Notes: a model not told the origin generated them from the letters alone. A DNA stretch of 20,000 nucleotides from an uncultured virus (IMG/VR IMGVR_UViG_3300037502_002629) (IMGVR_UViG_3300037502_002629); one strand, 5' to 3'; counted from the first letter of the stretch, positions 3,870 to 12,904 are shown. Translations and numbers: made by a program.

Positions 3870-5708
3870 TTACAGTGTCACTTTTTCAGTAATCAACGTA
3901 TTGATTTTAGTACGCAGAAATTCTACAAATTGAGCAGGAAACTTTGACATATCATTCATGTGTATAACATTCTTAAACATGTCTTTGCTTCTATAACCAT
4001 CAATTGCAATTTGTATTACTTGAAAACCCATTTTTTCTACTTCATTCACCATCCTTCGTGTATGATCTATAGCATATACACCAGTATATTTATTCGCACA
4101 GGGAGAACCATCGCTAATGACAATAAATAAACCATTATTTTGTGTTTTACTACGCACACGCTTTGCTGCTGCTATAATAGCGGAACCATCTCGGTTTTCA
4201 TATTTAGCGCTGATATCTGCAAGTGCAGTTTTCTGAGGGCTTCCTGGTTCTTTATATATTTGAATTTGTGTCGAACCTGTTCCACCTGTATCATACTTCT
4301 TCATATAATCAACTTCACCATCCCAATCAGCAGTATGACCATAGATAAATAATTCTACATCTTTGACCTTTTTGAGACATTCATTAAGATAAATAGCTGC
4401 TTTGCGTGCCTGTTCAATTTTATATCCATGCATGCTACCAGATTCATCCACTAAAATAGTTACAGACAATTTATCAGTTTTTACTTGACCAATGCGTTCA
4501 TAAATAGTAGATACATGTTGTTTAGCCTCGGCTAACTTATTAGTATCTAATCTACCGCTTCGCATTGACTTTAGAATAAATTGATAATCTCTGTTTTTGC
4601 GATGTAATAAATTTGCTATAACATTTGCTTTAGTAAGATCTATTTCATTAAGCAGACTGTTATACTTATCAGCACTGTGTTTACTGTCAGCAACATTTAA
4701 ATAATCAATTTTACTACCGCTTACTTTAATATCAATCTCTTCTTTTTCATCGAGTTCTTTCATGAAACTAGCAAAAGAGCCATCCTCTTTTTTGTCAGAT
4801 TCTTCCATTTGTTCCATTAGCTTTTTAGCAAAATCGCTCAAGGAATCTTTTACAGATTTGCTCAATGATGTTTTTTTCTCAGATGTATCCTCGTCGGTTT
4901 TAGACTCATCACCAGAGCTTTCATCACCGTCTCCATCACCATCTTTATCACTATCTGAATCAGCACTACCACTTTTTTCTGACTTGCTTTTTTCTTGTTC
5001 TGTTACAAATTCAGAAATAATGTTACTGATTTTTTTACTTAGCTTATCACAATCTTCTATATCATCAGGTATACCATTATACTTTAATATTTGCGATTTG
5101 ATTTTATCAATTGGAATTTGAAACTTGCTAAGTTCTTCTTCTGTAATTTGGTCTGGATATCTAATAATGCGATCAAAGAGATCAAGCAGATGCTCATAGT
5201 CATTACTTGCTACTGGTCGCGTCTCGTATTTATGATCTTTGTATTTTTTTATAAACTTCAAATACCCTGGAGTATGCTGAGCCATTCTTGTATTTATCCG
5301 TTCTTGGTTCAGAGCATTAAATACAAATGATTTTAACGAAGACCGAACTTTGCTATTTTTTATTCTTAGGCGTTCATCTTTATCTAAATGCACAAGACTC
5401 GCAATATTTTGTAAAGACGCGCCTATAAAAACGTCAATATTGGTATCATTCAGCAATTTAGTTGGAATAAATGCTTTATCTACACTATTAGCATTACCTG
5501 CAAATTCTTTACGACTAACGCCCATTACTTTTGACATCACCGATAATAAACTTGCAGCTTCTTCCATGTTTATTTTTTTACTTCCACCAAGAAAGAAATC
5601 GCTGTAATTTGCATAACCTTTATCCCAACTATAAGCTCGTTTGCTGGGATCATAATGAGTATAGCCATAATCGGCATCTCTGCTAAACCAATCTCTAAAA
5701 TATGTCAT
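3870..5708 (-). CDS. vWA-domain protein (CobT/NorD-like MoxR partner)
   Basis: SGRLD..L motif, MIDAS ILVDESGSM, ENRDG, IVISDGSP; acidic/Ser-rich central linker; downstream of the AAA+ gene. Confidence 0.88.
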   Translation of the reverse strand: MTYFRDWFSRDADYGYTHYDPSKRAYSWDKGYANYSDFFLGGSKKINMEEAASLLSVMSKVMGVSRKEFAGNANSVDKAFIPTKLLNDTNIDVFIGASLQNIASLVHLDKDERLRIKNSKVRSSLKSFVFNALNQERINTRMAQHTPGYLKFIKKYKDHKYETRPVASNDYEHLLDLFDRIIRYPDQITEEELSKFQIPIDKIKSQILKYNGIPDDIEDCDKLSKKISNIISEFVTEQEKSKSEKSGSADSDSDKDGDGDGDESSGDESKTDEDTSEKKTSLSKSVKDSLSDFAKKLMEQMEESDKKEDGSFASFMKELDEKEEIDIKVSGSKIDYLNVADSKHSADKYNSLLNEIDLTKANVIANLLHRKNRDYQFILKSMRSGRLDTNKLAEAKQHVSTIYERIGQVKTDKLSVTILVDESGSMHGYKIEQARKAAIYLNECLKKVKDVELFIYGHTADWDGEVDYMKKYDTGGTGSTQIQIYKEPGSPQKTALADISAKYENRDGSAIIAAAKRVRSKTQNNGLFIVISDGSPCANKYTGVYAIDHTRRMVNEVEKMGFQVIQIAIDGYRSKDMFKNVIHMNDMSKFPAQFVEFLRTKINTLITEKVTL

Positions 5709-5712
5709 TTTG

Positions 5713-5898
5713 TTATTTTTTAAATGGTTTATCTAATTCTTTCCTATATTCATCTATATCAGTGAAAACAGGAGGAACTTTCCCGCACATAGCACACCCC
5801 ATCTCTCCATGAGAGACAGGGTATACTACTGGTGAATACTGTTCGTTTTTGCAATAAATGCATTTAGTTTGCATTATTACTTTTGCCGTTTCAGTCAT
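5713..5898 (-). CDS. small Zn-ribbon protein
   Basis: CIYC..CAMC; TAATG coupling to the AAA gene stop. Confidence 0.65.
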   Translation of the reverse strand: MTETAKVIMQTKCIYCKNEQYSPVVYPVSHGEMGCAMCGKVPPVFTDIDEYRKELDKPFKK

Positions 5899-6392
5899 TA
5901 GTTCGCCGCAATAATTGATTTTACTTTACTACGTTCTGATACACCAGAGGCATCATCAAATAGGGGCAGTATAACTTTCATTAATGCACCTACAGTATCA
6001 AAGCCATCTTTAATCAAACTCGCAGCAAGCAGGGTGTGACGTACTGATATTACATTACTCAGTTCCTGCTCTTTGAATTGATTACGAATTGTAGAAGATA
6101 CTTTAACAATCGCCTTAGCTGTTTTAGTGTCAATACCAGTGCGAATTGTTAAGATGTTTTCTTCTGCTTGCTCAGAGGGATAGCTCAATTCCACAGGGAA
6201 GAAACGATCTAACAAAGCGCGGTCAATCTGAGTAGTACCACTATACTCCGCACCTAAGTTAGCAGTGGCAAAGAATACACATTTCTCATTGACGGGGATA
6301 CTACGCAGTGCATCACCGCCTGCAATGTCTACAGGAAGATATCTACGTTTGTCAAGACATGGGAACAATATGTTTGCGGCTGAAATCGGGGC
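5898..6392 (-). CDS. MoxR/CbbQ-type AAA+ ATPase, exon 2 (164 aa)
   Basis: APISAANILFPCLD..FFATAN (sensor 1)..DRALLDRF (Arg finger)..ISVRHTL; continues in frame from exon 1 LLDELNR. Confidence 0.9.
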   Translation of the reverse strand, partial: APISAANILFPCLDKRRYLPVDIAGGDALRSIPVNEKCVFFATANLGAEYSGTTQIDRALLDRFFPVELSYPSEQAEENILTIRTGIDTKTAKAIVKVSSTIRNQFKEQELSNVISVRHTLLAASLIKDGFDTVGALMKVILPLFDDASGVSERSKVKSIIAAN

Positions 6393-6448
6393 CAAATATG
6401 TTATCATAGAAGCTCTTTATCTTCTATTTCTGTATATTACTATACAGT

Positions 6449-7372
6449 TCAGACTATATCATCATCATGATTATTAATCATGAGCAGGGCACTCGTGTTA
6501 GCATTACTGTCCTCAACATTACTTGGTAGGACTCGGCTATTAGTCGTTGAACCTTCAAGAGCATTACTGCTCAAGCTTGGCTGCTGATTGTCCTCTGAGC
6601 CATCAGTAGGAGTTTCCAGCAATTCACCCTGTTTTACAATCGCTATCCCCTTCTTAAATCTGTATTTACCTTTAACTTTCTTACCTATACCTCTACAAAC
6701 ACTTGAAATACATGCACACAAACTATCAAAATTATCTCCTTCTTCATAAATGCTTCTAGCTGCAGTAGCTATATTTTTAAATTCTGAAATATTACCTTCA
6801 GAATCAATCATAGTTACTCCAACCCATTTCCACTTAGATCTTTGTAAATCATAAGTGACTTCAGCATTTTTGTTGTAGCTCCACAAATAACCACCCGCAG
6901 ATTTAAGTTTACCATTACAAACTTGTATAATGGAACTTGCTGCTATGTGAGTCTGTCGTTGAGCTTCTTTTGTAGAAGGATAATTACTTACTAGTTTACC
7001 ATCAAGTCCAAACTGGTATACAGTTTTACTGTTAGGTATAGAATTATTTTGTGTTACAGGATCCAGTTTATTATTCAATACTGGCCCTAACAACTCAATC
7101 CAATTTTTTTCTAGTTCAAGTAATTTTTCTCTTGATATGTCTTTTTCAAGATGCAGTACAGAATAATGACACTTTTCTGAACCGTGTTTGTTGAATGTGT
7201 GCTGCATCCTAGAATTTTCATGACTATTCTTTATCAATTTGTTTTTATGTTCCCTAAGTCTGTTTTGAATATTTACAGAACTTCCTACATAATTTAATTC
7301 ATTGATTTTGAGATAGTAGATTCCAGGATACTTACTTATTACATCAAGTGATGTTTGAAATAGAGGTGTCAT
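6449..7372 (-). CDS. intron-encoded GIY-YIG homing endonuclease with NUMOD1-type DNA-binding repeats
   Basis: GIYYLKINELNYVGSS..R..EH..ELEKNWI; VYQFGLDGKLVSNYPSTKEA..I..VCNGK..SAGGYLW. Confidence 0.9.
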   Translation of the reverse strand: MTPLFQTSLDVISKYPGIYYLKINELNYVGSSVNIQNRLREHKNKLIKNSHENSRMQHTFNKHGSEKCHYSVLHLEKDISREKLLELEKNWIELLGPVLNNKLDPVTQNNSIPNSKTVYQFGLDGKLVSNYPSTKEAQRQTHIAASSIIQVCNGKLKSAGGYLWSYNKNAEVTYDLQRSKWKWVGVTMIDSEGNISEFKNIATAARSIYEEGDNFDSLCACISSVCRGIGKKVKGKYRFKKGIAIVKQGELLETPTDGSEDNQQPSLSSNALEGSTTNSRVLPSNVEDSNANTSALLMINNHDDDIV

Positions 7373-7399
7373 TGTAATTAGTATTAGATGATTTTAATA

Positions 7400-7431
7400 C
7401 AAATATACAATTATTTGTTAAGATAAACAAA
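7400..7431 (-). promoter_or_regulatory. Bacteroidota primary-sigma promoter for the endonuclease
   Basis: TTTG (7431-7428)-N20-TATATTTG (7407-7400), about 28 nt upstream of ATG 7372. Confidence 0.7.
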
Positions 7432-7452
7432 TACTTAAGATTTTATTTATTA

Positions 7453-8220
7453 ACGATTCAACTCGTCAAGAAGTACGATACCATCTTGTTGCACATGGCC
7501 TACAAATGGAGCATAATCGAACTCTGAATGACCGTCTTTATTCAACCTGTGCACACCTAACAATGCAGATTGAGCATCTTGCACAGTACCCATATCCTGT
7601 ATACTCAAGGGTTTTTCCATGGCACGCGCAATGTGTGATACCAGCTCTGTCTTGCCTGAGCCTGTAGGTCCTACCAACAACGTATTTTCACCACGCATGA
7701 TGTTACGTATTAACAAATACCATACATCTGCATCAATGTGAAAACCTGTGCTTTGCTCATCTGGACAAGGGTACAATCGCATAATACGATCTCTTAGTGT
7801 ACCTGTTTCATCTTCGGCATAAGCTTTACATTTAGCTTCCACATCTAACAAGTAACCCATCTCGACCCACTTAGCTGCATATTCGAGGGCTTTTTCGCGC
7901 TTAATCTCATTAGACATAAGCATCCACTCAAACGTGTAGTTAACATCTTCGTGTGTGCAGGATATTTCACCTACAGTATTCCCATATACAGTTTCTTCGT
8001 AAATGACAGGACGCGGTGCCCCTATAATCTTAGAAACTACTTCACCCCAAAGGATTTCACTAACAATAAACACTGTCCCTATCGGGAATTTTGTCAATAT
8101 TTTAGAGTCACCTGTAAACGTGGTGCTGGATAAATCAATTGCCTTTGGTTTATTAGGCTGGTTGTCAACAAATTCAATGTTAAATTGTGTACCTCTGAGG
8201 GCGGTTTTAATTAAATACAT
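7453..8220 (-). CDS. MoxR/CbbQ-type AAA+ ATPase, exon 1 (256 aa; spliced product 420 aa)
   Basis: Walker A LVGPTGSGKT; Walker B IVLLDELNR ends exactly at the intron. Confidence 0.9.
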
Positions 8221-8941: not shown

Positions 8942-9175
8942 TTAACTTCTCTCGTTCCAGTAGTCATCAAAATCGCACATTGACCGGGCATAGACATGAC
9001 CTCTGGCATCATGTGCATGGATTGCAGCGTCCCAAGTTTGACCGTGTTGGTGTCGTTCAAGCTCCAGAAGTTCCTCAGCCTTGTCAATCGCTTGGGCGAA
9101 TGAGAGTATCTTACTTGGATTATCCTTGAGCATCTGCTCACCCCATTCAATCAGTTGTTGGAGTGCGGTCTTCAT
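8942..9175 (-). CDS. small phage protein, KQTAV..EW family paralog
   Basis: MKTALQQLIEW..LELERHQ..FDDYWNE; start at ATGA overlap 9172-9175. Confidence 0.7.
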   Translation of the reverse strand: MKTALQQLIEWGEQMLKDNPSKILSFAQAIDKAEELLELERHQHGQTWDAAIHAHDARGHVYARSMCDFDDYWNERS

Positions 9176-9402: not shown

Positions 9403-9647
9403 TGTTTAGGTTGTTTATAGTTTTCATTATAGTAATTCTCAGCATATACTTGGTCTGTCCAAGGTTCTGATAGGTAGTCTCGACCATTCCTAAAACTTTC
9501 TTTTGCTACCTTGACAATCATTTCTGCTTCCTTTTGTTTAGCAATGGCATATGTCATACAAGCTGTTTCATATAAATCTCCATCGTGTTCAAAATGACTT
9601 TTAATTTTATCAAAGTACCAATCTACTGCGGTTTGTTTATTTTCCAT
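9399..9647 (-). CDS. small phage protein, KQTAV..EW family paralog
   Basis: MENKQTAVDWY..AKQKEAEMI..AENYYNENY. Confidence 0.75.
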   Translation of the reverse strand: MENKQTAVDWYFDKIKSHFEHDGDLYETACMTYAIAKQKEAEMIVKVAKESFRNGRDYLSEPWTDQVYAENYYNENYKQPKQ

Positions 9648-9843
9648 ATGTTTCATTGTAGTATTGTTCTGCATTATTTAAAGTAATATCTTCTGGGAAT
9701 GAAGAACCTTCATCAAATCCTCTGTCAAGCGCTTTCATTATCTGCTCCTTCTCTATTGCGAGTGCTTGGTCAAAGTCTGATGCTTGAAGTTCTTTTGTCT
9801 GGCTTAGATTCCAAAGCCATTCGACTGCTGTCTGTTGTTTCAT
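9637..9843 (-). CDS. small phage protein, KQTAV..EW family paralog
   Basis: MKQQTAVEWL..ALAIEKEQI..AEQYYNETYGK. Confidence 0.75.
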   Translation of the reverse strand: MKQQTAVEWLWNLSQTKELQASDFDQALAIEKEQIMKALDRGFDEGSSFPEDITLNNAEQYYNETYGK

Positions 9844-9844
9844 A

Positions 9845-10234
9845 TTAATACTCTCTTTTAGGTATAAATTTTTCCATTCCAATGATGTACTCTTCAGCTA
9901 TCCAAGAAGTGGATGTGGTGTAATACTTTTCTCCCATCTTAAATGCTCTATGCGTTTCTTCTACATCATTGTAGTTTGTCTTTACCATGTACTGATTGTC
10001 GGGGTTGAACCTTGCATGAAATACTTGAGTGTCTTCTTTCTTAGCCAAGCTTTCTTCATACTGCCAATCCTTTTGTAGCCATTCAAAGAGGTGTATCCTT
10101 TCACCTTCTGTCATTTGACTCCAATATTTGTCTGTTAAGTTTTGCCAAAACATTGTCCGTGCAATTGGTCTTGGCGGTATACAAGCCTCTGCTAAGAAGG
10201 CTAATTCAAAGAAATCTATTGTGAATGTAGTCAT
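9845..10234 (-). CDS. hypothetical protein (129 aa)
   Basis: Likely start MTTFTIDFFEL at 10234; the longer ORF-track start overlaps the next gene. Confidence 0.7.
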   Translation of the reverse strand: MTTFTIDFFELAFLAEACIPPRPIARTMFWQNLTDKYWSQMTEGERIHLFEWLQKDWQYEESLAKKEDTQVFHARFNPDNQYMVKTNYNDVEETHRAFKMGEKYYTTSTSWIAEEYIIGMEKFIPKREY

Positions 10235-10283
10235 ACTATGGTTGTGTTTTGTTTCATCTATCCCATCCCCTCCTGCTGGATTG

Positions 10284-10319
10284 GCGAAATAATATATCGG
10301 TAATAATAAGTTAGCGGTA
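10284..10319 (+). repeat. right half of an attC-like site (R' GTTAGCG)
   Basis: GTTAGCGGTA (10310-10319) is the exact reverse complement of TACCGCTAAC (10744-10753) at the other end of the same cassette; left arm not seen. Confidence 0.6.
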
Positions 10320-10322
10320 ATA

Positions 10323-10697
10323 TTACTTACCGTACACAAACCAAATCGGCTTAACTGAACAAAACATTCCCCAATCTTGACTGCCAACACCACTTCTTTC
10401 AGTTGACAACTCAAATGCAACTTTTGTGCTTCCATCTGTATCGGGTTCATTTGCTGTTGGTTTTTTATTGGCTTGATACCATCCCCAAGCGAAATCAATA
10501 GTTTGTTGTAAATTGTATTCGTAAGGGAATTTTTCGCACTTGTCCGAATACCTTGAAAGAAATAATTCGTTTTCAATTATTTTATATCCGTTGCATCTAA
10601 ATTCCTTATTGAAAGGAACTTCATCCAATGCAATAAGTTTTAAGCCTAATTCAAAGGCTTCTTTTGTGGTGTTTCTAACTAATACTTCTACATTCAT
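10323..10697 (-). CDS. cassette 1 hypothetical protein (124 aa)
   Basis: ORF fills the interval between core sites at 10310 and 10753. Confidence 0.8.
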   Translation of the reverse strand: MNVEVLVRNTTKEAFELGLKLIALDEVPFNKEFRCNGYKIIENELFLSRYSDKCEKFPYEYNLQQTIDFAWGWYQANKKPTANEPDTDGSTKVAFELSTERSGVGSQDWGMFCSVKPIWFVYGK

Positions 10698-10746
10698 TTT
10701 ATTATCGTTTTTAATTGAAAATCACTCGTAAACTAAACCGTACTAC

Positions 10747-10877
10747 CGCTAACAAGGGTTTGTAGCAATAGGGGCAGAAGTGCTTTAATTAAGCTGTGTA
10801 CTTCTAATCAGCTTTAGTAGGTAATTGAACAGTAGTGCATCTAATCCCCTACTGCTACAAGCCCCGAAACGTTAGCT
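10747..10877 (+). repeat. attC-like recombination site A (131 bp)
   Basis: CGCTAAC-AAGGG-TTTGTAGCAATAGGGG..CCCCTACTGCTACAAG-CCCCGAAAC-GTTAGCT imperfect palindrome. Confidence 0.8.
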
Positions 10878-11498
10878 GCAACCGTAAGAAAGCACCTCGA
10901 TAGCCTTGTTCGCTTGTTCGATAGTTAATCCTTCCATTGAATCACAGCAGATAAAATATTTTGATTGTTCGTAAAGCATATCGGAATCATCATCTAAAAT
11001 CACATAGGTAAAATCAGTTCCCAGCTTATTTGAACGCATCATTTTAAAACTACCATCTTCATTTAAAATTTGGTATCGCTCATTTTGTTCAGGGTAAGCA
11101 TACCAAGGGTAAATTACGTGTGTATCTAACCATTGTTTAATTTCAACACCCCTCGGAATTGATAAATGAACACCTTTTTGTAAATATTGATAAGCTCTAA
11201 TTGTTATACCTATAATTTCATCACAAAATTTAAAGCCGTGTTCTTTCATGTGTTCAATAGTATCTTCAATAGTATGTTTTCTCCAACTGCTACTAAGAAC
11301 TATTTTTGCACCTGTTTTTTCTATTATCATTCCAAGTAATTCTTGTTTTTCGGGTGTTAAAGCCCACATTCCATGCTCAACTGTTTTTGGTGTAGCAATT
11401 ACCCCATCAATATCGAGAAAAATAAAACGGCAGCAGCTAACCGCACCTATACGCAAAATGGGGTTGTCGTTCTCGTTGGATAAATTTTCAGTATTCAT
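10872..11498 (-). CDS. HAD-superfamily phosphatase (HAD domain of Swiss-Army-knife RNA repair type), cassette 2
   Basis: IFLDIDGV, IVLSSSWR, RGVEIKQWL, YVILDDDSDM..GLT motifs; likely start MNTENL lies inside attC-B. Confidence 0.85.
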   Translation of the reverse strand: MNTENLSNENDNPILRIGAVSCCRFIFLDIDGVIATPKTVEHGMWALTPEKQELLGMIIEKTGAKIVLSSSWRKHTIEDTIEHMKEHGFKFCDEIIGITIRAYQYLQKGVHLSIPRGVEIKQWLDTHVIYPWYAYPEQNERYQILNEDGSFKMMRSNKLGTDFTYVILDDDSDMLYEQSKYFICCDSMEGLTIEQANKAIEVLSYGCS

Positions 11499-11567
11499 AA
11501 GTTTCGTTTTTGTTGTTAATTTTGTGGGTACAATCCCCATTCAGCGCATAGCTGCAACTCGTTAGTG
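11435..11567 (+). repeat. attC-like recombination site B (133 bp)
   Basis: AGCTAAC-CGCAC-CTATACGCAAAATGGGGTTGT..ACAATCCCCATTCAGCGCATAG-CTGCAACTC-GTTAGTG. Confidence 0.78.
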
Positions 11568-11574
11568 GCAAGTG

Positions 11575-11892
11575 CTACTGACCGTTCCATAACAAACGAT
11601 GTTCGTCTAACTTGTCATAATATTGTTTCATATTTTCATCGCCTACAATTTGTTTTAATTCCTGCTTCCAAAAGTCTTTTTCTAAATTGTGAAGTTCATT
11701 AGCTCTTATAAGCCTTGCAGTTTCGTTAGGGTTCTCAAGTTTATTATAGTTCAGTGTTGCAAGCCTTAATCTGAATCCACTTATAATTGCTCTTACTTTA
11801 GGAATTAAAACATCTTTCCTAAAATATGGCTCATCGTTTATAGCTTGTACTAATATTTCTGATAATTCTTTTGTACTCGTTTCTTTTGACAT
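11575..11892 (-). CDS. cassette 3 hypothetical protein (105 aa)
   Basis: ORF fills the interval between attC-B and attC-C. Confidence 0.8.
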   Translation of the reverse strand: MSKETSTKELSEILVQAINDEPYFRKDVLIPKVRAIISGFRLRLATLNYNKLENPNETARLIRANELHNLEKDFWKQELKQIVGDENMKQYYDKLDEHRLLWNGQ

Positions 11893-11916
11893 TTTCGTTT
11901 AATTTACCGCACCAGC

Positions 11917-12019
11917 CGCTAACAGCGGTTTGGTGCTATTATTTTGCCTATAAATTTTATCTAAGGCTTGAAGTATCTGCAAGGCAAAATAACAGACACC
12001 AAGCCACCAAACGTTATGT
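11917..12019 (+). repeat. attC-like recombination site C (103 bp)
   Basis: CGCTAAC-AGCGG-TTTGGTGCTATTATTTTGCCT..AGGCAAAATAACAGACACCAAG-CCACCAAAC-GTTATGT. Confidence 0.8.
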
Positions 12020-12325
12020 GCAAGGCTGCGGGACGTTTTCAATATAAGTTTCCAGTTTTATAAACCTATACCCTTTTTGAAAGCTAAACATTGTATGTCC
12101 GCAAGTTTTATGATGCAATCCAAATAACATAGTATCAAATGTTTTATTTGTGAGTGAAGTTATAAATGTTTCAACTGAAAAAGGAAATGTTATTTTCTTT
12201 TTTGCTATACCTAAAACACTTCCGCAACATCCGCAATAAAACTTGCTGCCTTTTAGAATATCGTTACCATCTGATTTCTCAACAATGATTGTATCTCTCA
12301 TTTTATCAATTAGAACTTTTTCCAT
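12014..12325 (-). CDS. cassette 4 Cys/His-containing protein (103 aa)
   Basis: CGCCG..HHKTCGH; stop codon lies inside the GTTA core of attC-C. Confidence 0.78.
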   Translation of the reverse strand: MEKVLIDKMRDTIIVEKSDGNDILKGSKFYCGCCGSVLGIAKKKITFPFSVETFITSLTNKTFDTMLFGLHHKTCGHTMFSFQKGYRFIKLETYIENVPQPCT

Positions 12326-12354
12326 TGCGTTTACAAATTAAATTTAGTGCTGAA

Positions 12355-12380
12355 CACATCACCCCACCGTGAAGTAGACT
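12355..12380 (+). repeat. 26-bp exact direct repeat, copy 1
   Basis: CACATCACCCCACCGTGAAGTAGACT, also at 14672-14697. Confidence 0.95.
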
Positions 12381-12637
12381 CCATCTCGGCTTGTTTGCTT
12401 GGTTACGTTGCGATTCATAAACTTGAAGGTCTCGACAATCCACTGCATTATGGTCCGGTGCATCGTCTTCTGATGCTCTTGGAATGCTGTCCTGATCTGA
12501 TCGACAATATCAGTGAGCTTGTATTCGACTCCGATGATGATGAATTCCTTGATCCACAGCATGACTTCTTCCGGGACTGTGTTGATGAGCTTCTTGTAGC
12601 GGAGGGTGTTTGTTGTTTCATATTGGGAAGCGGAGAG
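12359..12637 (-). pseudogene. 5'-truncated gene fragment, GC-richer than flanks (tentatively a primase/helicase-like C-terminus)
   Basis: Frame LSASQYETTNTLRYKKLINTVPEEVMLWIKEF..GVYFTVG* is closed upstream by the TAA of the cassette-5 core (12638-12640); family guess is from memory only. Confidence 0.4.
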
Positions 12638-12647
12638 TTATAGGTAA

Positions 12648-12821
12648 TTAAAAAATTGACTTCAATCGTTTCCACCACGATTTCCATCTAAACCTAATTA
12701 TTGTATCACATATCATACATTTATCCATTGTGTAATGCTCCGTATTTGTGTAAACGATATGACGGAAATCATTGCAGTCGTGCTTTACATAAGTTACTGC
12801 TTTATCTTGTTCTTTATTCAT
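12648..12821 (-). CDS. cassette 5 small Cys protein (57 aa)
   Basis: MNKEQDK..HDC..CMIC; bounded by GTTATAGGTA (12637-12646) and its reverse complement TACCTATAAC (12838-12847). Confidence 0.65.
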   Translation of the reverse strand: MNKEQDKAVTYVKHDCNDFRHIVYTNTEHYTMDKCMICDTIIRFRWKSWWKRLKSIF

Positions 12822-12840
12822 AATCAATTTTTTAACATAC

Positions 12841-12904
12841 CTATAACAAAGTGTATAAGTAATGTGGCTAAATAAGTTTATCTGTAAGTTGAAAGTATGT
12901 GCAA
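12841..12904 (+). repeat. left half of attC-like site D (truncated)
   Basis: CTATAAC-AAAGT-GTATAAGTAATGTGGC; no complementary right arm follows. Confidence 0.55.

Follow-up and report, generated by a model that had tools for sequence, protein, structure and literature searches.

Integrons are regarded as a bacterial device with the IntI integrase as its defining part, and to our knowledge phages have been regarded at most as occasional bearers of stray attC sites. A 20,000-nucleotide stretch of DNA from an uncultured virus (IMG/VR IMGVR_UViG_3300037502_002629), referred to here in its whole length as the window, carries a row of small genes separated by imperfect palindromes, which raises the question of whether this row is a mobile cassette array and what type of recombinase acts on it. 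The initial annotation of this DNA had read the row as integron cassettes with their genes reversed relative to attC, served by an integron integrase of a host or a distant integron. The present analysis leads to the conclusion that 10296-12847 is very probably a five-cassette mobile array of an integron-like gene-capture system of Bacteroidota-type phages, here without a recombinase.

Hairpin sites, docking site and cassettes of the window

The features are as follows (coordinates are those of the window).

10296-10313, plus strand: docking site (attI-like), ATCGGTAATAATAAG|TTA, with the crossover between G10310 and T10311
10311-10871, minus strand: cassette 1, gene 10323-10697 (124 aa, no family), with hairpin site 1
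10750-10874, top strand plus: hairpin site 1 (attC-like), 125 nt from TAAC to GTTA, arms 10756-10774/10846-10864 (19 nt, 89%)
10872-11561, minus strand: cassette 2, gene 10872-11498 (208 aa, HAD_SAK_2 phosphatase-type domain, PF18143, E 1.2e-21), with hairpin site 2
11438-11564, top strand plus: hairpin site 2, 127 nt from TAAC to GTTA, arms 11443-11463/11535-11555 (21 nt, 81%)
11562-12013, minus strand: cassette 3, gene 11575-11892 (105 aa, no family), with hairpin site 3
11920-12016, top strand plus: hairpin site 3, 97 nt from TAAC to GTTA, arms 11936-11949/11982-11995 (14 nt, 93%)
12014-12350, minus strand: cassette 4, gene 12014-12325 (103 aa, cysteine-rich, no family), hairpin lost
12347-12636, minus strand: scar, the remnant of a gene truncated at the 5' end, G+C-richer (0.42-0.46)
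12638-12847, minus strand: cassette 5, gene 12648-12821 (57 aa), inverted ends of 19 nt and a decayed hairpin (left arm only)

Each cassette consists of a gene on the minus strand and a hairpin site upstream of it, intact in three of the five cassettes. Neighbouring cassettes meet head to tail at G|TTA, and the first one abuts the hairpin-less docking site, to the left of which there is no hairpin. Of the five cargo proteins, one has a HAD-type phosphatase domain and the other four are small and without a known family, and the gene of cassette 1 has no Pfam or PHROG match.

The three imperfect hairpin sites have a single architecture and a single polarity, as the initial annotation had noticed. 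The site detector, which requires TAAC and GTTA at the two ends, paired arms and a base at which the right arm exceeds the left by 2-6 nt, produced 3 matches on both strands of the 20-kb window together, all inside the flagged stretch, whereas 40 dinucleotide shuffles averaged 0.1 matches and never gave more than 1. This final detector, based on arm-only folding, replaced an ungapped match and a whole-site fold, which were dropped because they missed most sites or called both strands. Single-stranded DNA folding of the three sites gives z values of -2.8 to -3.6 relative to shuffles in five of the six strand folds: -2.80 on the plus strand and -3.37 on the minus strand for site 1, -3.44 and -3.59 on the two strands for site 3, and -3.09 on the minus strand but only -0.49 on the plus strand for site 2.

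The ends of the units were also claimed to be complementary to each other, and this stands for units 1-3 and for the unit 12637-12847 but not for 12014-12636, whose matching right end was looked for and is absent within the window. Complementary ends are found at 10310-10322/10741-10753 (13 nt, 92%), 10871-10885/11427-11441 (15 nt, 87%) and 12637-12655/12829-12847 (19 nt, 84%), and the ten letters beside the cores pair at 8, 8 and 7 of 10 positions in units 1, 2 and 3. Over 212 neighbouring pairs of the site family described below, the mean pairing is 7.51 of 10, as against 3.17 of 10 for the two flanks of one site and 3.21 of 10 for random pairs.

The hairpin of cassette 4 has been lost, as its relatives show: in contigs L253/L257 and L256 an intact hairpin with matching ends lies past the cassette 4 gene, and near 12350 their sequence parts from that of the window and L255. 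The scar stands in the place of this hairpin, has a longer form in L255 (93% identity over 12013-12615) and ends at a second docking-like junction, G12637. Past TACCTATAAC (12838-12847), at the end of cassette 5, no hairpin folds in the window (z -0.25 and -1.37), whereas L259 and L260 have an intact one there.

Contig L255 matches the window with 88-93% identity over 8965-9175, 9743-9845 and 12013-12615, and has the identical 14-nt docking motif and G|TTA, which run directly into cassette 4. Therefore, cassettes 1-3 are extra at the docking site of the window, and the two contigs form a clean natural before/after pair. Three further studies contributed contigs with breaks at 10313, 12013/12017 and 12637. 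A contig of sequencing run X2 matches 10205-10313, continues with 1221 other letters and rejoins the window at 12357. The comparisons with sequencing runs (X1, X2, X4 and X6) used assembled contigs, not raw reads, and parts of the window left uncovered in X2, X4 and X6 are given no weight. A habitat reading was discarded, as the small word shares in other runs are no evidence of habitat. Six viral arrays that carry a recombinase have an AT-rich ...ATA(A)G|TTA junction, 40-52 nt away from the recombinase start codon. An 8-codon open reading frame starting at 10257, 52 nt from G|TTA, which is the spacing of the recombinase start in three of the six loci, was considered as a recombinase stump and ruled out, since L255 and window positions 9826-9843 identify it as a 5' end duplicated from the adjacent MKQQT... 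gene family. Five contigs with the gene at 9845-10234 (L003-L007) have no array and almost nothing else in common with the window.

Cassette exchange in related contigs and phages

Cassettes 2, 4 and 5 of the window are mobile units, occurring in other viral contigs between unrelated flanks with homology that starts at G|TTA. The initial annotation had proposed a cassette row recombining at G|TT and had asked for the same cassettes in other contexts with junctions at the core, and the junctions in related contigs and phages bear it out on both points. Cassette 2 is 92% identical in L013 over 10870-11572 and about 90% identical in L014/L015; its left junction G|TTAGCTGC recurs in L013, L014, L015, L017 and L018 beside unrelated left flanks, and its right junction G|TTA in L013 and L014/L015. 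In L017 and L018 the HAD gene has a different hairpin and the homology stops at or near the left-hand TAAC, a pattern that a simple one-crossover model does not predict. The homology of cassette 4 begins at 12013 in L253, L254, L255, L257 and one run X6 contig, and that of cassette 5 at G|TTATAGG in L258, L259, L260 and contigs of runs X2 and X4, the context being different each time. Cassette 3 has a relative in L248 (75% identity over 11582-11906). Relatives of the cassette 1 gene lie in L025 and L026, loci in which the detector found no site, and no second context was found for it. A run X1 contig has 10789-10874 of site 1 in common with the window and diverges directly past GTTA, and a run X6 contig matches 11906-12017 only, site 3 being surrounded there by unlike DNA on both sides.

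The window sites belong to a family of 253 distinct sites, found in the window itself, in five Flavobacterium phages, in 33 IMG/VR contigs and in 9 bacterial loci. Their common architecture is TAAC, 1 unpaired nt, stem, loop, stem, 5 unpaired nt with AAC as the last three, and GTTA. The asymmetry between the two spacers was correctly seen in the initial annotation but their lengths, 5 nt on the left and 9 nt on the right, were not, because four of the five left letters and their partners pair and covary, leaving 1 unpaired letter in the left spacer and 5 in the right one. The family sites are 60-130 nt long, conserved in structure but not in sequence, with one bulged base in the right arm and a conserved C.A mismatch at flank position 7; RNAalifold predicts 17 pairs from 37 sites, 16 of them with compensatory changes. 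A conserved T.G pair had suggested a top-strand folding bias in the first phages, but this bias is gone over the 253 sites, where arm-only folding is more stable on the top strand in 132, on the bottom strand in 116 and tied in 5, with no clear strand bias. At least 141 stretches were found in the IMG/VR scan, with arrays of up to 16 sites among the contigs listed.

The five Flavobacterium phages have 10-cassette arrays in which whole units are shuffled at G|TTA. When these arrays are cut at the right-hand G|TTA, the 50 units fall into 23 full-length clusters with 17 partial pair matches, compared with 31 clusters and 52 partial matches when they are cut at the left end instead. One 784-nt methyltransferase cassette has four different left and five different right neighbours, the break lying at G|TTA, and the site of a methyltransferase cassette in Flavobacterium phages is about 76% like site 3 of the window. 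DNA methyltransferases are the commonest named cargo in related arrays and probably protect the phage from host restriction; the methyltransferase content of Flavobacterium phages has been linked to plating efficiency across hosts (Nilsson et al. 2020).

Hairpins between co-directional genes that fold well on both strands, one of them with a start codon (that of cassette 2) inside its loop, could instead be terminators or RNA stem-loops between early genes, the genes being swapped by homologous recombination within them. Because the hairpin sequences are unlike each other, there is little homology to recombine on, and the breaks lie beside unrelated DNA at one point of phosphodiester scale, G|TTA. 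The ends of a unit pair together far better than the flanks of one hairpin (7.51 versus 3.17 of 10). In addition, the terminator scan called none of the three sites, no T run follows their stems, and no Rfam family matches them; the single Rfam match, to a snoRNA, is at chance level (E 0.18), and predicted sigma-70 promoters and terminators did not rise above shuffles. We therefore regard a role as terminators or RNA elements as very improbable. It is even harder to believe, and in our judgement extremely improbable, that the palindromes are small MITE-like or REP-like non-autonomous elements that insert alone and leave the genes outside the mobile unit. This would suit the cases in which one gene has different hairpins, namely the HAD gene, as seen in L017 and L018, and a Flavobacterium phage unit with copies unlike each other over the last 56 nt, as well as the run X6 contig with only site 3 in common. 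On the contrary, gene and hairpin move together as full-length units, as indicated by 23 clusters against 31 for the alternative cut, a gene pair with and without an intervening hairpin is not seen in the five-phage comparison, and the outer stem of a site is completed by the far end of its own cassette alone.

Gene orientation and the partner recombinase

The top strand of the window sites is the plus strand, because a hairpin moves together with its left-hand gene, and the right-hand GTTA is the point of crossover. The initial annotation had reached the same polarity from spacer lengths, a weak argument for a right conclusion. It had also placed every gene on the minus strand, and this reversal is general: the gene lies on the bottom strand of the site in 147 of 165 viral cassettes, with 1 on the top strand and 17 ambiguous, and both window cassettes scored for orientation are of the bottom-strand type. 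Therefore, in viral arrays the hairpin is upstream of the gene and transcription runs toward the docking site. In bacterial arrays with the same sites, in contrast, the gene is on the top strand in 18 of 19 cassettes, and the recombinase comes first with the genes downstream on the same strand.

The absence of a recombinase from the window was confirmed by a six-frame search (best tblastn E 0.63, best profile E 1.3). A PF00589 recombinase is present in 6 of 24 viral array loci (E 3e-34 to 2e-43), a count based on comparing 28 of 64 flanking open reading frames with Pfam in contigs of which many are fragments. This recombinase is an Xer-like tyrosine type of 264-289 aa, located at the docking end on the gene strand. 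Its best NCBIfam model is the XerA type, followed in varying order by XerC, XerD and the integron-integrase model TIGR02249, on which the recombinases score 139-165 bits against a cut-off of 265. They match TIGR02249 in two stretches, skipping about model positions 176-238, where they have only about 13 residues; the skipped stretch holds the IntI-specific segment. Homologs with 30-46% identity are found in bacterial genomes, mostly of Bacteroidota including Flavobacteriia, and in 9 of the 80 loci retained, at least two sites of the same architecture adjoin the recombinase homolog. Above the cut-off, PF00589 is absent from all three complete Flavobacterium phage genomes and all five further IMG/VR records searched, so that most carriers seen are orphans, and it is adjacency that ties the enzyme to the sites. 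One weak PF00589 match (E 0.01) lies about 40 kb from an array in the carrier records searched.

Judging from this adjacency and from sequence comparison, the partner enzyme of the system is likely to be an Xer-like recombinase and not an integron integrase, contrary to the initial annotation: those related viral arrays that retain an enzyme have a small Xer-like recombinase, which falls short of the integron-integrase cut-off and is without the IntI-specific segment. The opposing reading is that the array is a classical integron remnant (CALIN), with ordinary attC sites and a host IntI-type integrase. The cores TAAC and GTTA and the G|TT crossover are as in attC, and the related recombinases do reach 139-165 bits on TIGR02249. 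Moreover, Qi et al. (2023) predicted attC sites in Polaribacter phage P12002L, two of which were tested, one being inserted into attI1 by IntI1; our scan places the P12002L sites in the same kind of array, and an integron integrase is therefore a possible actor. The site that failed with IntI1 is P12002L attC1, the one that is a true hairpin of the family, and the 21 phages listed by Qi et al. include no Flavobacterium phage, although those bear 10 sites each. The extra unpaired letters lie in the right arm of the top strand, while the aadA7 attC in Table S3 of that study has its extra base in the left arm. Together with the sub-threshold TIGR02249 scores, the skipped model positions, the XerA-type best model and the bottom-strand genes in 147 of 165 viral cassettes, these features make this reading quite improbable.

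The mechanism beyond the breakage of units at G|TTA is drawn by analogy with integrons, including enzyme activity, circles and the use of a folded strand. By this analogy, a tyrosine recombinase would excise a cassette as a circle through two neighbouring sites and reinsert the circle at the docking site, reading a folded single strand whose shape, but not sequence, is conserved. Since the window has no recombinase, its five-cassette array is either frozen or served in trans, in which case the donor might be a co-infecting phage or a homologous recombinase beside same-family arrays in chromosomes of Flavobacteriia or other Bacteroidota. With the recombinase missing and the hairpin lost from two of the five cassettes, the window copy may be a fossil. 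Tentatively, and with considerable doubt, the site family can be viewed as two mirror forms with separate cassette pools: a bacterial form with the gene before the hairpin and the recombinase leading, and a phage form with the hairpin before the gene and the recombinase, if kept, closing the row, most phage arrays being without the enzyme and served in trans by a host Xer-like recombinase or a co-infecting phage. If this were true, the host enzyme would set the pace at which lytic phages re-equip themselves with anti-restriction and other accessory genes.

Comparison with integrons and other known systems

The published precedents found are partial, namely Qi et al. (2023) and Ross et al. (2019). 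Qi et al. (Front Microbiol 14:1091391) applied IntegronFinder and HattCI to 10,705 phage genomes and listed 21 phages. The arrays described here resemble their phage CALINs in methyltransferase cargo, and by our scan the P12002L array is a member of the present family with short hairpins. Ross et al. (bioRxiv 10.1101/471110) described the recombinase-associated acquired interbacterial defence clusters (rAID-1) of Bacteroidales, defined by a recombinase at least 44% identical to a B. fragilis XerD-like protein and located 5' of at least two co-directional low-G+C genes. The likeness lies in co-directional low-G+C genes that stand in a row next to a tyrosine recombinase of the XerD family, and the bacterial arrays found here likewise have the recombinase first and same-strand genes downstream. 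The phage arrays differ from rAID-1, which as described is chromosomal, carries immunity genes and has its recombinase at the 5' end, in that the phage recombinase is at the 3' end, with none in the window. A kinship with rAID-1, likened by description and not by sequence, is a lead and not a result. Also by description, the recombinases may resemble the "integron-like" subgroup of simple tyrosine recombinases of Smyshlyaev et al. (2021; Mol Syst Biol 17:e9880), and relatives of IntI without the insertion are therefore on record as proteins; the passage on this subgroup deals with proteins only, without cassette arrays, sites or phage carriers.

The likeness to integrons and CALINs extends to single-gene cassettes with their own imperfect palindrome, TAAC/GTTA cores, the G|TT crossover, cassette-specific end pairing, conservation of structure rather than sequence, and a docking site that has no hairpin and lies at one end, next to any recombinase the array has. 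All three window sites have an attC-like core and structure, and G|TT boundaries and paired ends are present as in integrons, but the window has no IntI-type integrase and its genes are not on the top strand. With three sites within 1.3 kb and no recombinase in 20 kb, the window would have the composition of a CALIN if sites of this family were counted as attC under the published definition. As for an Xer-like cassette array, the site architecture is present in the window and an adjoining recombinase is not. In contrast to integrons, the associated recombinase is Xer-like, of 264-289 aa and without the IntI-specific segment, the phage genes are on the bottom strand with the hairpin upstream and transcription toward the docking site, and the sites have bulges of 1 versus 5 unpaired letters and a C.A mismatch at flank position 7. 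A phage would accordingly bear a working-style cassette array of a system related to integrons yet distinct from them, and common, with the window as one more orphan array in it. Such a system would account for the shuffling of methyltransferases and other accessory genes by lytic Bacteroidota phages, and it bears on the origin of integron-type, structure-read recombination from Xer-type enzymes.

Hairpin sites of the window and their architecture

Every credible gene of the 20-kb window is encoded on the − strand, and together they resemble a tailed phage's early and replication region, with a helicase, a ParB-like protein, an HNH-like protein and a MoxR/CbbQ-type ATPase that has a VWA partner, besides many small unknowns. 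Short segments of Cellulophaga and Flavobacterium phages give the top DNA matches, so the host is likely of the Bacteroidota type. The MoxR/CbbQ-type AAA ATPase (5898-8220) appears split into an AAA_5 N-terminal part (7450-8220) and a CbbQ_C part (5898-6407), between which lies a GIY-YIG/NUMOD1 homing endonuclease gene (6449-7372); its VWA/CobT-like partner is at 3870-5708. The features of the array are as follows.

10296-12847, genes on − strand: cassettes 1 to 5
10296-10313: docking site, an attI-like junction without a hairpin, crossover at G10310|T10311
10750-10874: hairpin site 1, from TAAC to GTTA
11438-11564: hairpin site 2, from TAAC to GTTA
11920-12016: hairpin site 3, from TAAC to GTTA
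12347-12640: scar fragment

The initial annotation had described three long imperfect inverted repeats between small genes, and all three are present where it placed them. When sites 1-3 are folded as single-stranded DNA, five of the six folds are better than those of shuffled sequences, with z between −2.8 and −3.6; the exception is site 2 on its + strand (z −0.49). A site detector built on TAAC...GTTA with the first and last 24-28 letters mutually paired and a right arm that has 2-6 extra unpaired letters at its base finds exactly sites 1-3 and no other match on both strands of the window, and gives a mean of 0.1 matches and a maximum of 1 on 40 dinucleotide shuffles. The four complementary end pairs that had been proposed are also real, with 92% over 13 nt, 87% over 15 nt, 7/10 beside the core for the third and 84% over 19 nt. 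The 5-nt and 9-nt spacers of that description turn out to be mostly paired and covarying, with just 1 and 5 letters unpaired, and, contrary to it, folding gives no hairpin after the last TAAC (12847).

The anatomy of the site family was derived from 279 sites, which have a median length of 126 nt and a range of 53-194 nt. To the 253 distinct ones the window contributes 3, Flavobacterium phages 24, 33 listed IMG/VR contigs 198 and bacteria 28. On the left side, the consensus runs TAAC-A, four covarying pairs, a near-invariant T.G and T-A, and a variable stem and loop; on the right side, five unpaired letters ending in AAC follow the right arm and precede GTTA. For 37 sites, RNAalifold predicts 17 pairs, and compensatory changes occur in 16 of them. 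The outer stem is completed solely by the far end of the site's own cassette. In 39 arrays (the window, five Flavobacterium phages designated L001 and L008-L011, and 33 listed IMG/VR loci), 182 distinct pairs of cognate ends were compared: positions 1-5 of the flank are paired in 86-91%, position 6 in 66% and positions 8-11 in 71-86%, with no pairing beyond 11. Position 7 from the TAAC/GTTA core is a C.A mismatch in 144 of the 182 and pairs in just 1%; 97% of sites have its A on the GTTA side. The end match of 212 neighbouring pairs is 7.51/10, against 3.17 for the two flanks of one site and 3.21 for random pairs. The folded single strand would be the form of the site that is used, and cassettes would pass through circular intermediates.

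Exchange of whole cassettes

Site 3 is about 76% like an intergenic element in 21 Flavobacterium phage records, where the element is annotated as a 34-aa 'hypothetical protein'. The phages hattifnatt9-1, mumin6-1, filifjonk9-1, snusmum6-1 and mymlan6-1 carry 10 sites each between single − strand genes, these counts excluding one 195-nt match with off-type bulges in each of two records. Cut after the G of the right-hand GTTA, the five arrays yield 50 units in 23 end-to-end clusters with 17 partial pair matches; cut at the left-hand TAAC, they yield 31 clusters with 52 partial matches. The five arrays are thus reorderings of whole units when cut at the right-hand G|TTA, so that cassettes do occur in other orders and contexts with junctions at the core, a check that the initial annotation had proposed. 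For example, a 784-nt methyltransferase cassette occupies four array positions with four left and five right neighbours, all different, and sequence sharing begins and ends within G|TTA. All five arrays have the same left end, a junction without a hairpin, ...TGTAATATTGTAG|TTA. Because whole units are reordered with the break at the right-hand G|TTA, the comparison settles the polarity: each hairpin goes with the gene on its left and crossover takes place at the right-hand core, which makes + the 'top' strand and the genes reversed, the polarity originally proposed. The gene adjoining the docking site in these phages (1073-1270 in L001; also in L008-L011) is conserved and encodes a 65-aa protein that, from its translation, looks like a ribbon-helix-helix regulator.

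The window's own cassettes also occur elsewhere. Cassette 2 encodes a HAD_SAK_2 domain (PF18143, E 1.2e-21) and has relatives in contig L013 (92% identical over 10870-11572) and contigs L014 and L015 (about 90%), the latter two having the same flanks as each other. In these three contigs and in L017 and L018, sequence on the left is unrelated as far as the G and identity starts at TTAGCTGC, and the right break in L013 and L014/L015 is G|TTA. For cassette 4, homology begins at 12013 in four of five contigs, and the hairpin, lost in the window, is intact with matching ends in three of the five (L253, L257 and L256). For cassette 5, homology begins at G12637 in three contexts, in two of which an intact hairpin follows TATCCTATAAC, the window retaining the left arm only. 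Relatives of cassette 1 are found only in loci without detectable sites. In runs from other studies, which as assembled contigs speak for presence only, one contig has 1221 other letters inserted where 10313 meets 12357, one begins at 12013 and two begin at 12637; in the run from which the window itself may come, a second contig has 10789-10874 in common with the window and then diverges. On these breakpoints, cassettes 2, 4 and 5 of the window are judged to move.

The HAD gene is accompanied by a different hairpin in L017 (2028-2690) and L018 (3487-4039), where homology to the window stops at 11465 and 11441, respectively, the latter being the end of the left-hand TAAC. Since homology ends at or near this TAAC, it is possible that cassettes may be exchanged at the left core as well. 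A comparable case is one Flavobacterium phage unit in which the difference is confined to the last 56 nt.

Contig L255, with identities to the window of 88.6% over 8965-9175, 93% over 9743-9845 and 93% over 12013-12615, is by this similarity a relative of the window phage, and the two differ by three cassettes at the docking site. In L255, the motif ATCGGTAATAATAAG|TTA is followed directly by cassette 4; in the window, cassettes 1, 2 and 3 stand between the same motif, at 10296-10313, and cassette 4. This difference is the trace expected of insertion at an attI-like docking site or of loss from it. Common to both is a scar, in which a G+C-richer gene fragment stands in place of the cassette 4 hairpin. 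In the window, this fragment has a G+C content of 0.42-0.46 against about 0.33 around it, its 5' end is cut off, and an out-of-frame fusion links it to another copy of the '...GTTGTTTCATAT + 13 nt + G|TTA' junction, which looks like a second docking site. Since two of the five hairpins are lost, the window array is partly decayed. A further insertion of 447 nt (9848-10294), present in the window relative to L255, lies between the start of gene 9637-9843 and the docking motif, brought gene 9845-10234 and has no hairpin sites at its bounds. Eight codons from the 5' end of the neighbouring gene are also duplicated in it, with a start codon at 10255-10257.

The recombinase of related arrays

In agreement with the original remark that no integrase is in view, no tyrosine recombinase is found in the window by Pfam in 28 ORFs, or in six frames by tblastn (best E 0.63) or profile search (best E 1.3). 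None is found in three complete Flavobacterium phage genomes, nor above the cut-off in five IMG/VR records with cassette 2 relatives. A pattern scan of IMG/VR gave at least 141 stretches, and among the matches listed there are 79 loci with DNA, many of them with one-polarity arrays of up to 16 sites. The flanks of 24 array loci were examined, and 28 of 64 flanking ORFs of at least 140 aa, mainly the larger ones and those nearest the docking end, were run against Pfam. Among these 24 listed loci, six encode a PF00589 recombinase (264-289 aa) whose N-terminal domain is SAM-like. In all six, the recombinase gene occupies the docking end and shares the strand of the cassette genes, and its start codon is 40-52 nt away from the first G|TTA. 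The catalytic residues R, K, H-x-x-R, H and Y are retained. Their best NCBIfam model is XerA (176-207 bits, cut-off 220); next, in an order that varies, come XerC, XerD and the integron-integrase model TIGR02249, which scores 139-165 bits against a cut-off of 265 and matches in two stretches, skipping model positions of about 176-238, where only about 13 residues are present. Because XerA scores best and TIGR02249 stays below its cut-off with this segment skipped, these enzymes are read as relatives of IntI and Xer without the IntI-defining segment. The structural reading of a cassette array with reversed genes and no integrase in view is right; the host or distant integron integrase proposed as its partner should give way to a putative Xer-like recombinase that is absent from the window phage.

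An alignment search of prokaryote genomes gave at least 598 relatives of the recombinase, of which the best 80 (30-46% identity) are mostly from Bacteroidota, including Flavobacterium, Psychroflexus, Chryseobacterium, Zunongwangia, Maribacter and Polaribacter. Nine of these 80 loci have at least two sites with this architecture immediately downstream of the recombinase and on its strand, two (L168 and L170) have sites upstream in a phage-like layout, and the remainder have fewer than two sites by a strict detector on contigs many of which end near the gene. Outside Bacteroidota, a homologous recombinase with same-architecture sites occurs in L196 (Desulfitobacterium sp.), L222 (a Spirochaetia MAG) and L168 (a Saccharimonadales MAG). 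The last is the best match among those listed (46% identity); its layout is phage-like, and the contig may be of phage origin and binned with the genome.

Of the 19 cassettes in the bacterial arrays, 18 have their gene on the top strand. The gene is on the bottom strand in 147 of 165 cassettes of the 33 listed IMG/VR arrays (1 top, 17 ambiguous), in 43 of 45 of the five Flavobacterium phages (2 ambiguous) and in both scored cassettes of the window. In bacterial and phage forms alike, the recombinase occupies the docking end and points the same way as the cargo; it is first in the row in bacteria and last in phages.

Comparison with known systems

A full-text literature search returned no account of the site family, the Xer-like phage partner or the reversed gene orientation, and Supplementary File S1 (Dryad) of Qi et al. 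2023 may hold more sites. In the available part of that paper, IntegronFinder and HattCI were applied to 10,705 phage genomes, and the 21 phages listed there with integron parts include no Flavobacterium phage. Of the sites of Polaribacter phage P12002L, its attC2 was recombined by IntI1 and its attC1 was not; our analysis identifies attC2 as the hairpin-less junction at the end of the P12002L array. This published phage 'CALIN' (29150-32290) is a short-hairpin array of the window's site family; the three methyltransferase genes in it are encoded opposite the top strand of the site. Nilsson et al. 2020 linked methyltransferase content of the Flavobacterium phages to plating efficiency, the words 'cassette' and 'integrase' being absent from the accessible portion of the text. 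According to the sections available of Smyshlyaev et al. 2021, the IntI insertion is not conserved throughout the 'integron-like' recombinase subgroup. Bacteroidales rAID-1 clusters, as described in the part of Ross et al. 2019 at hand, combine a XerD-family recombinase with integron-like intergenic repeats.
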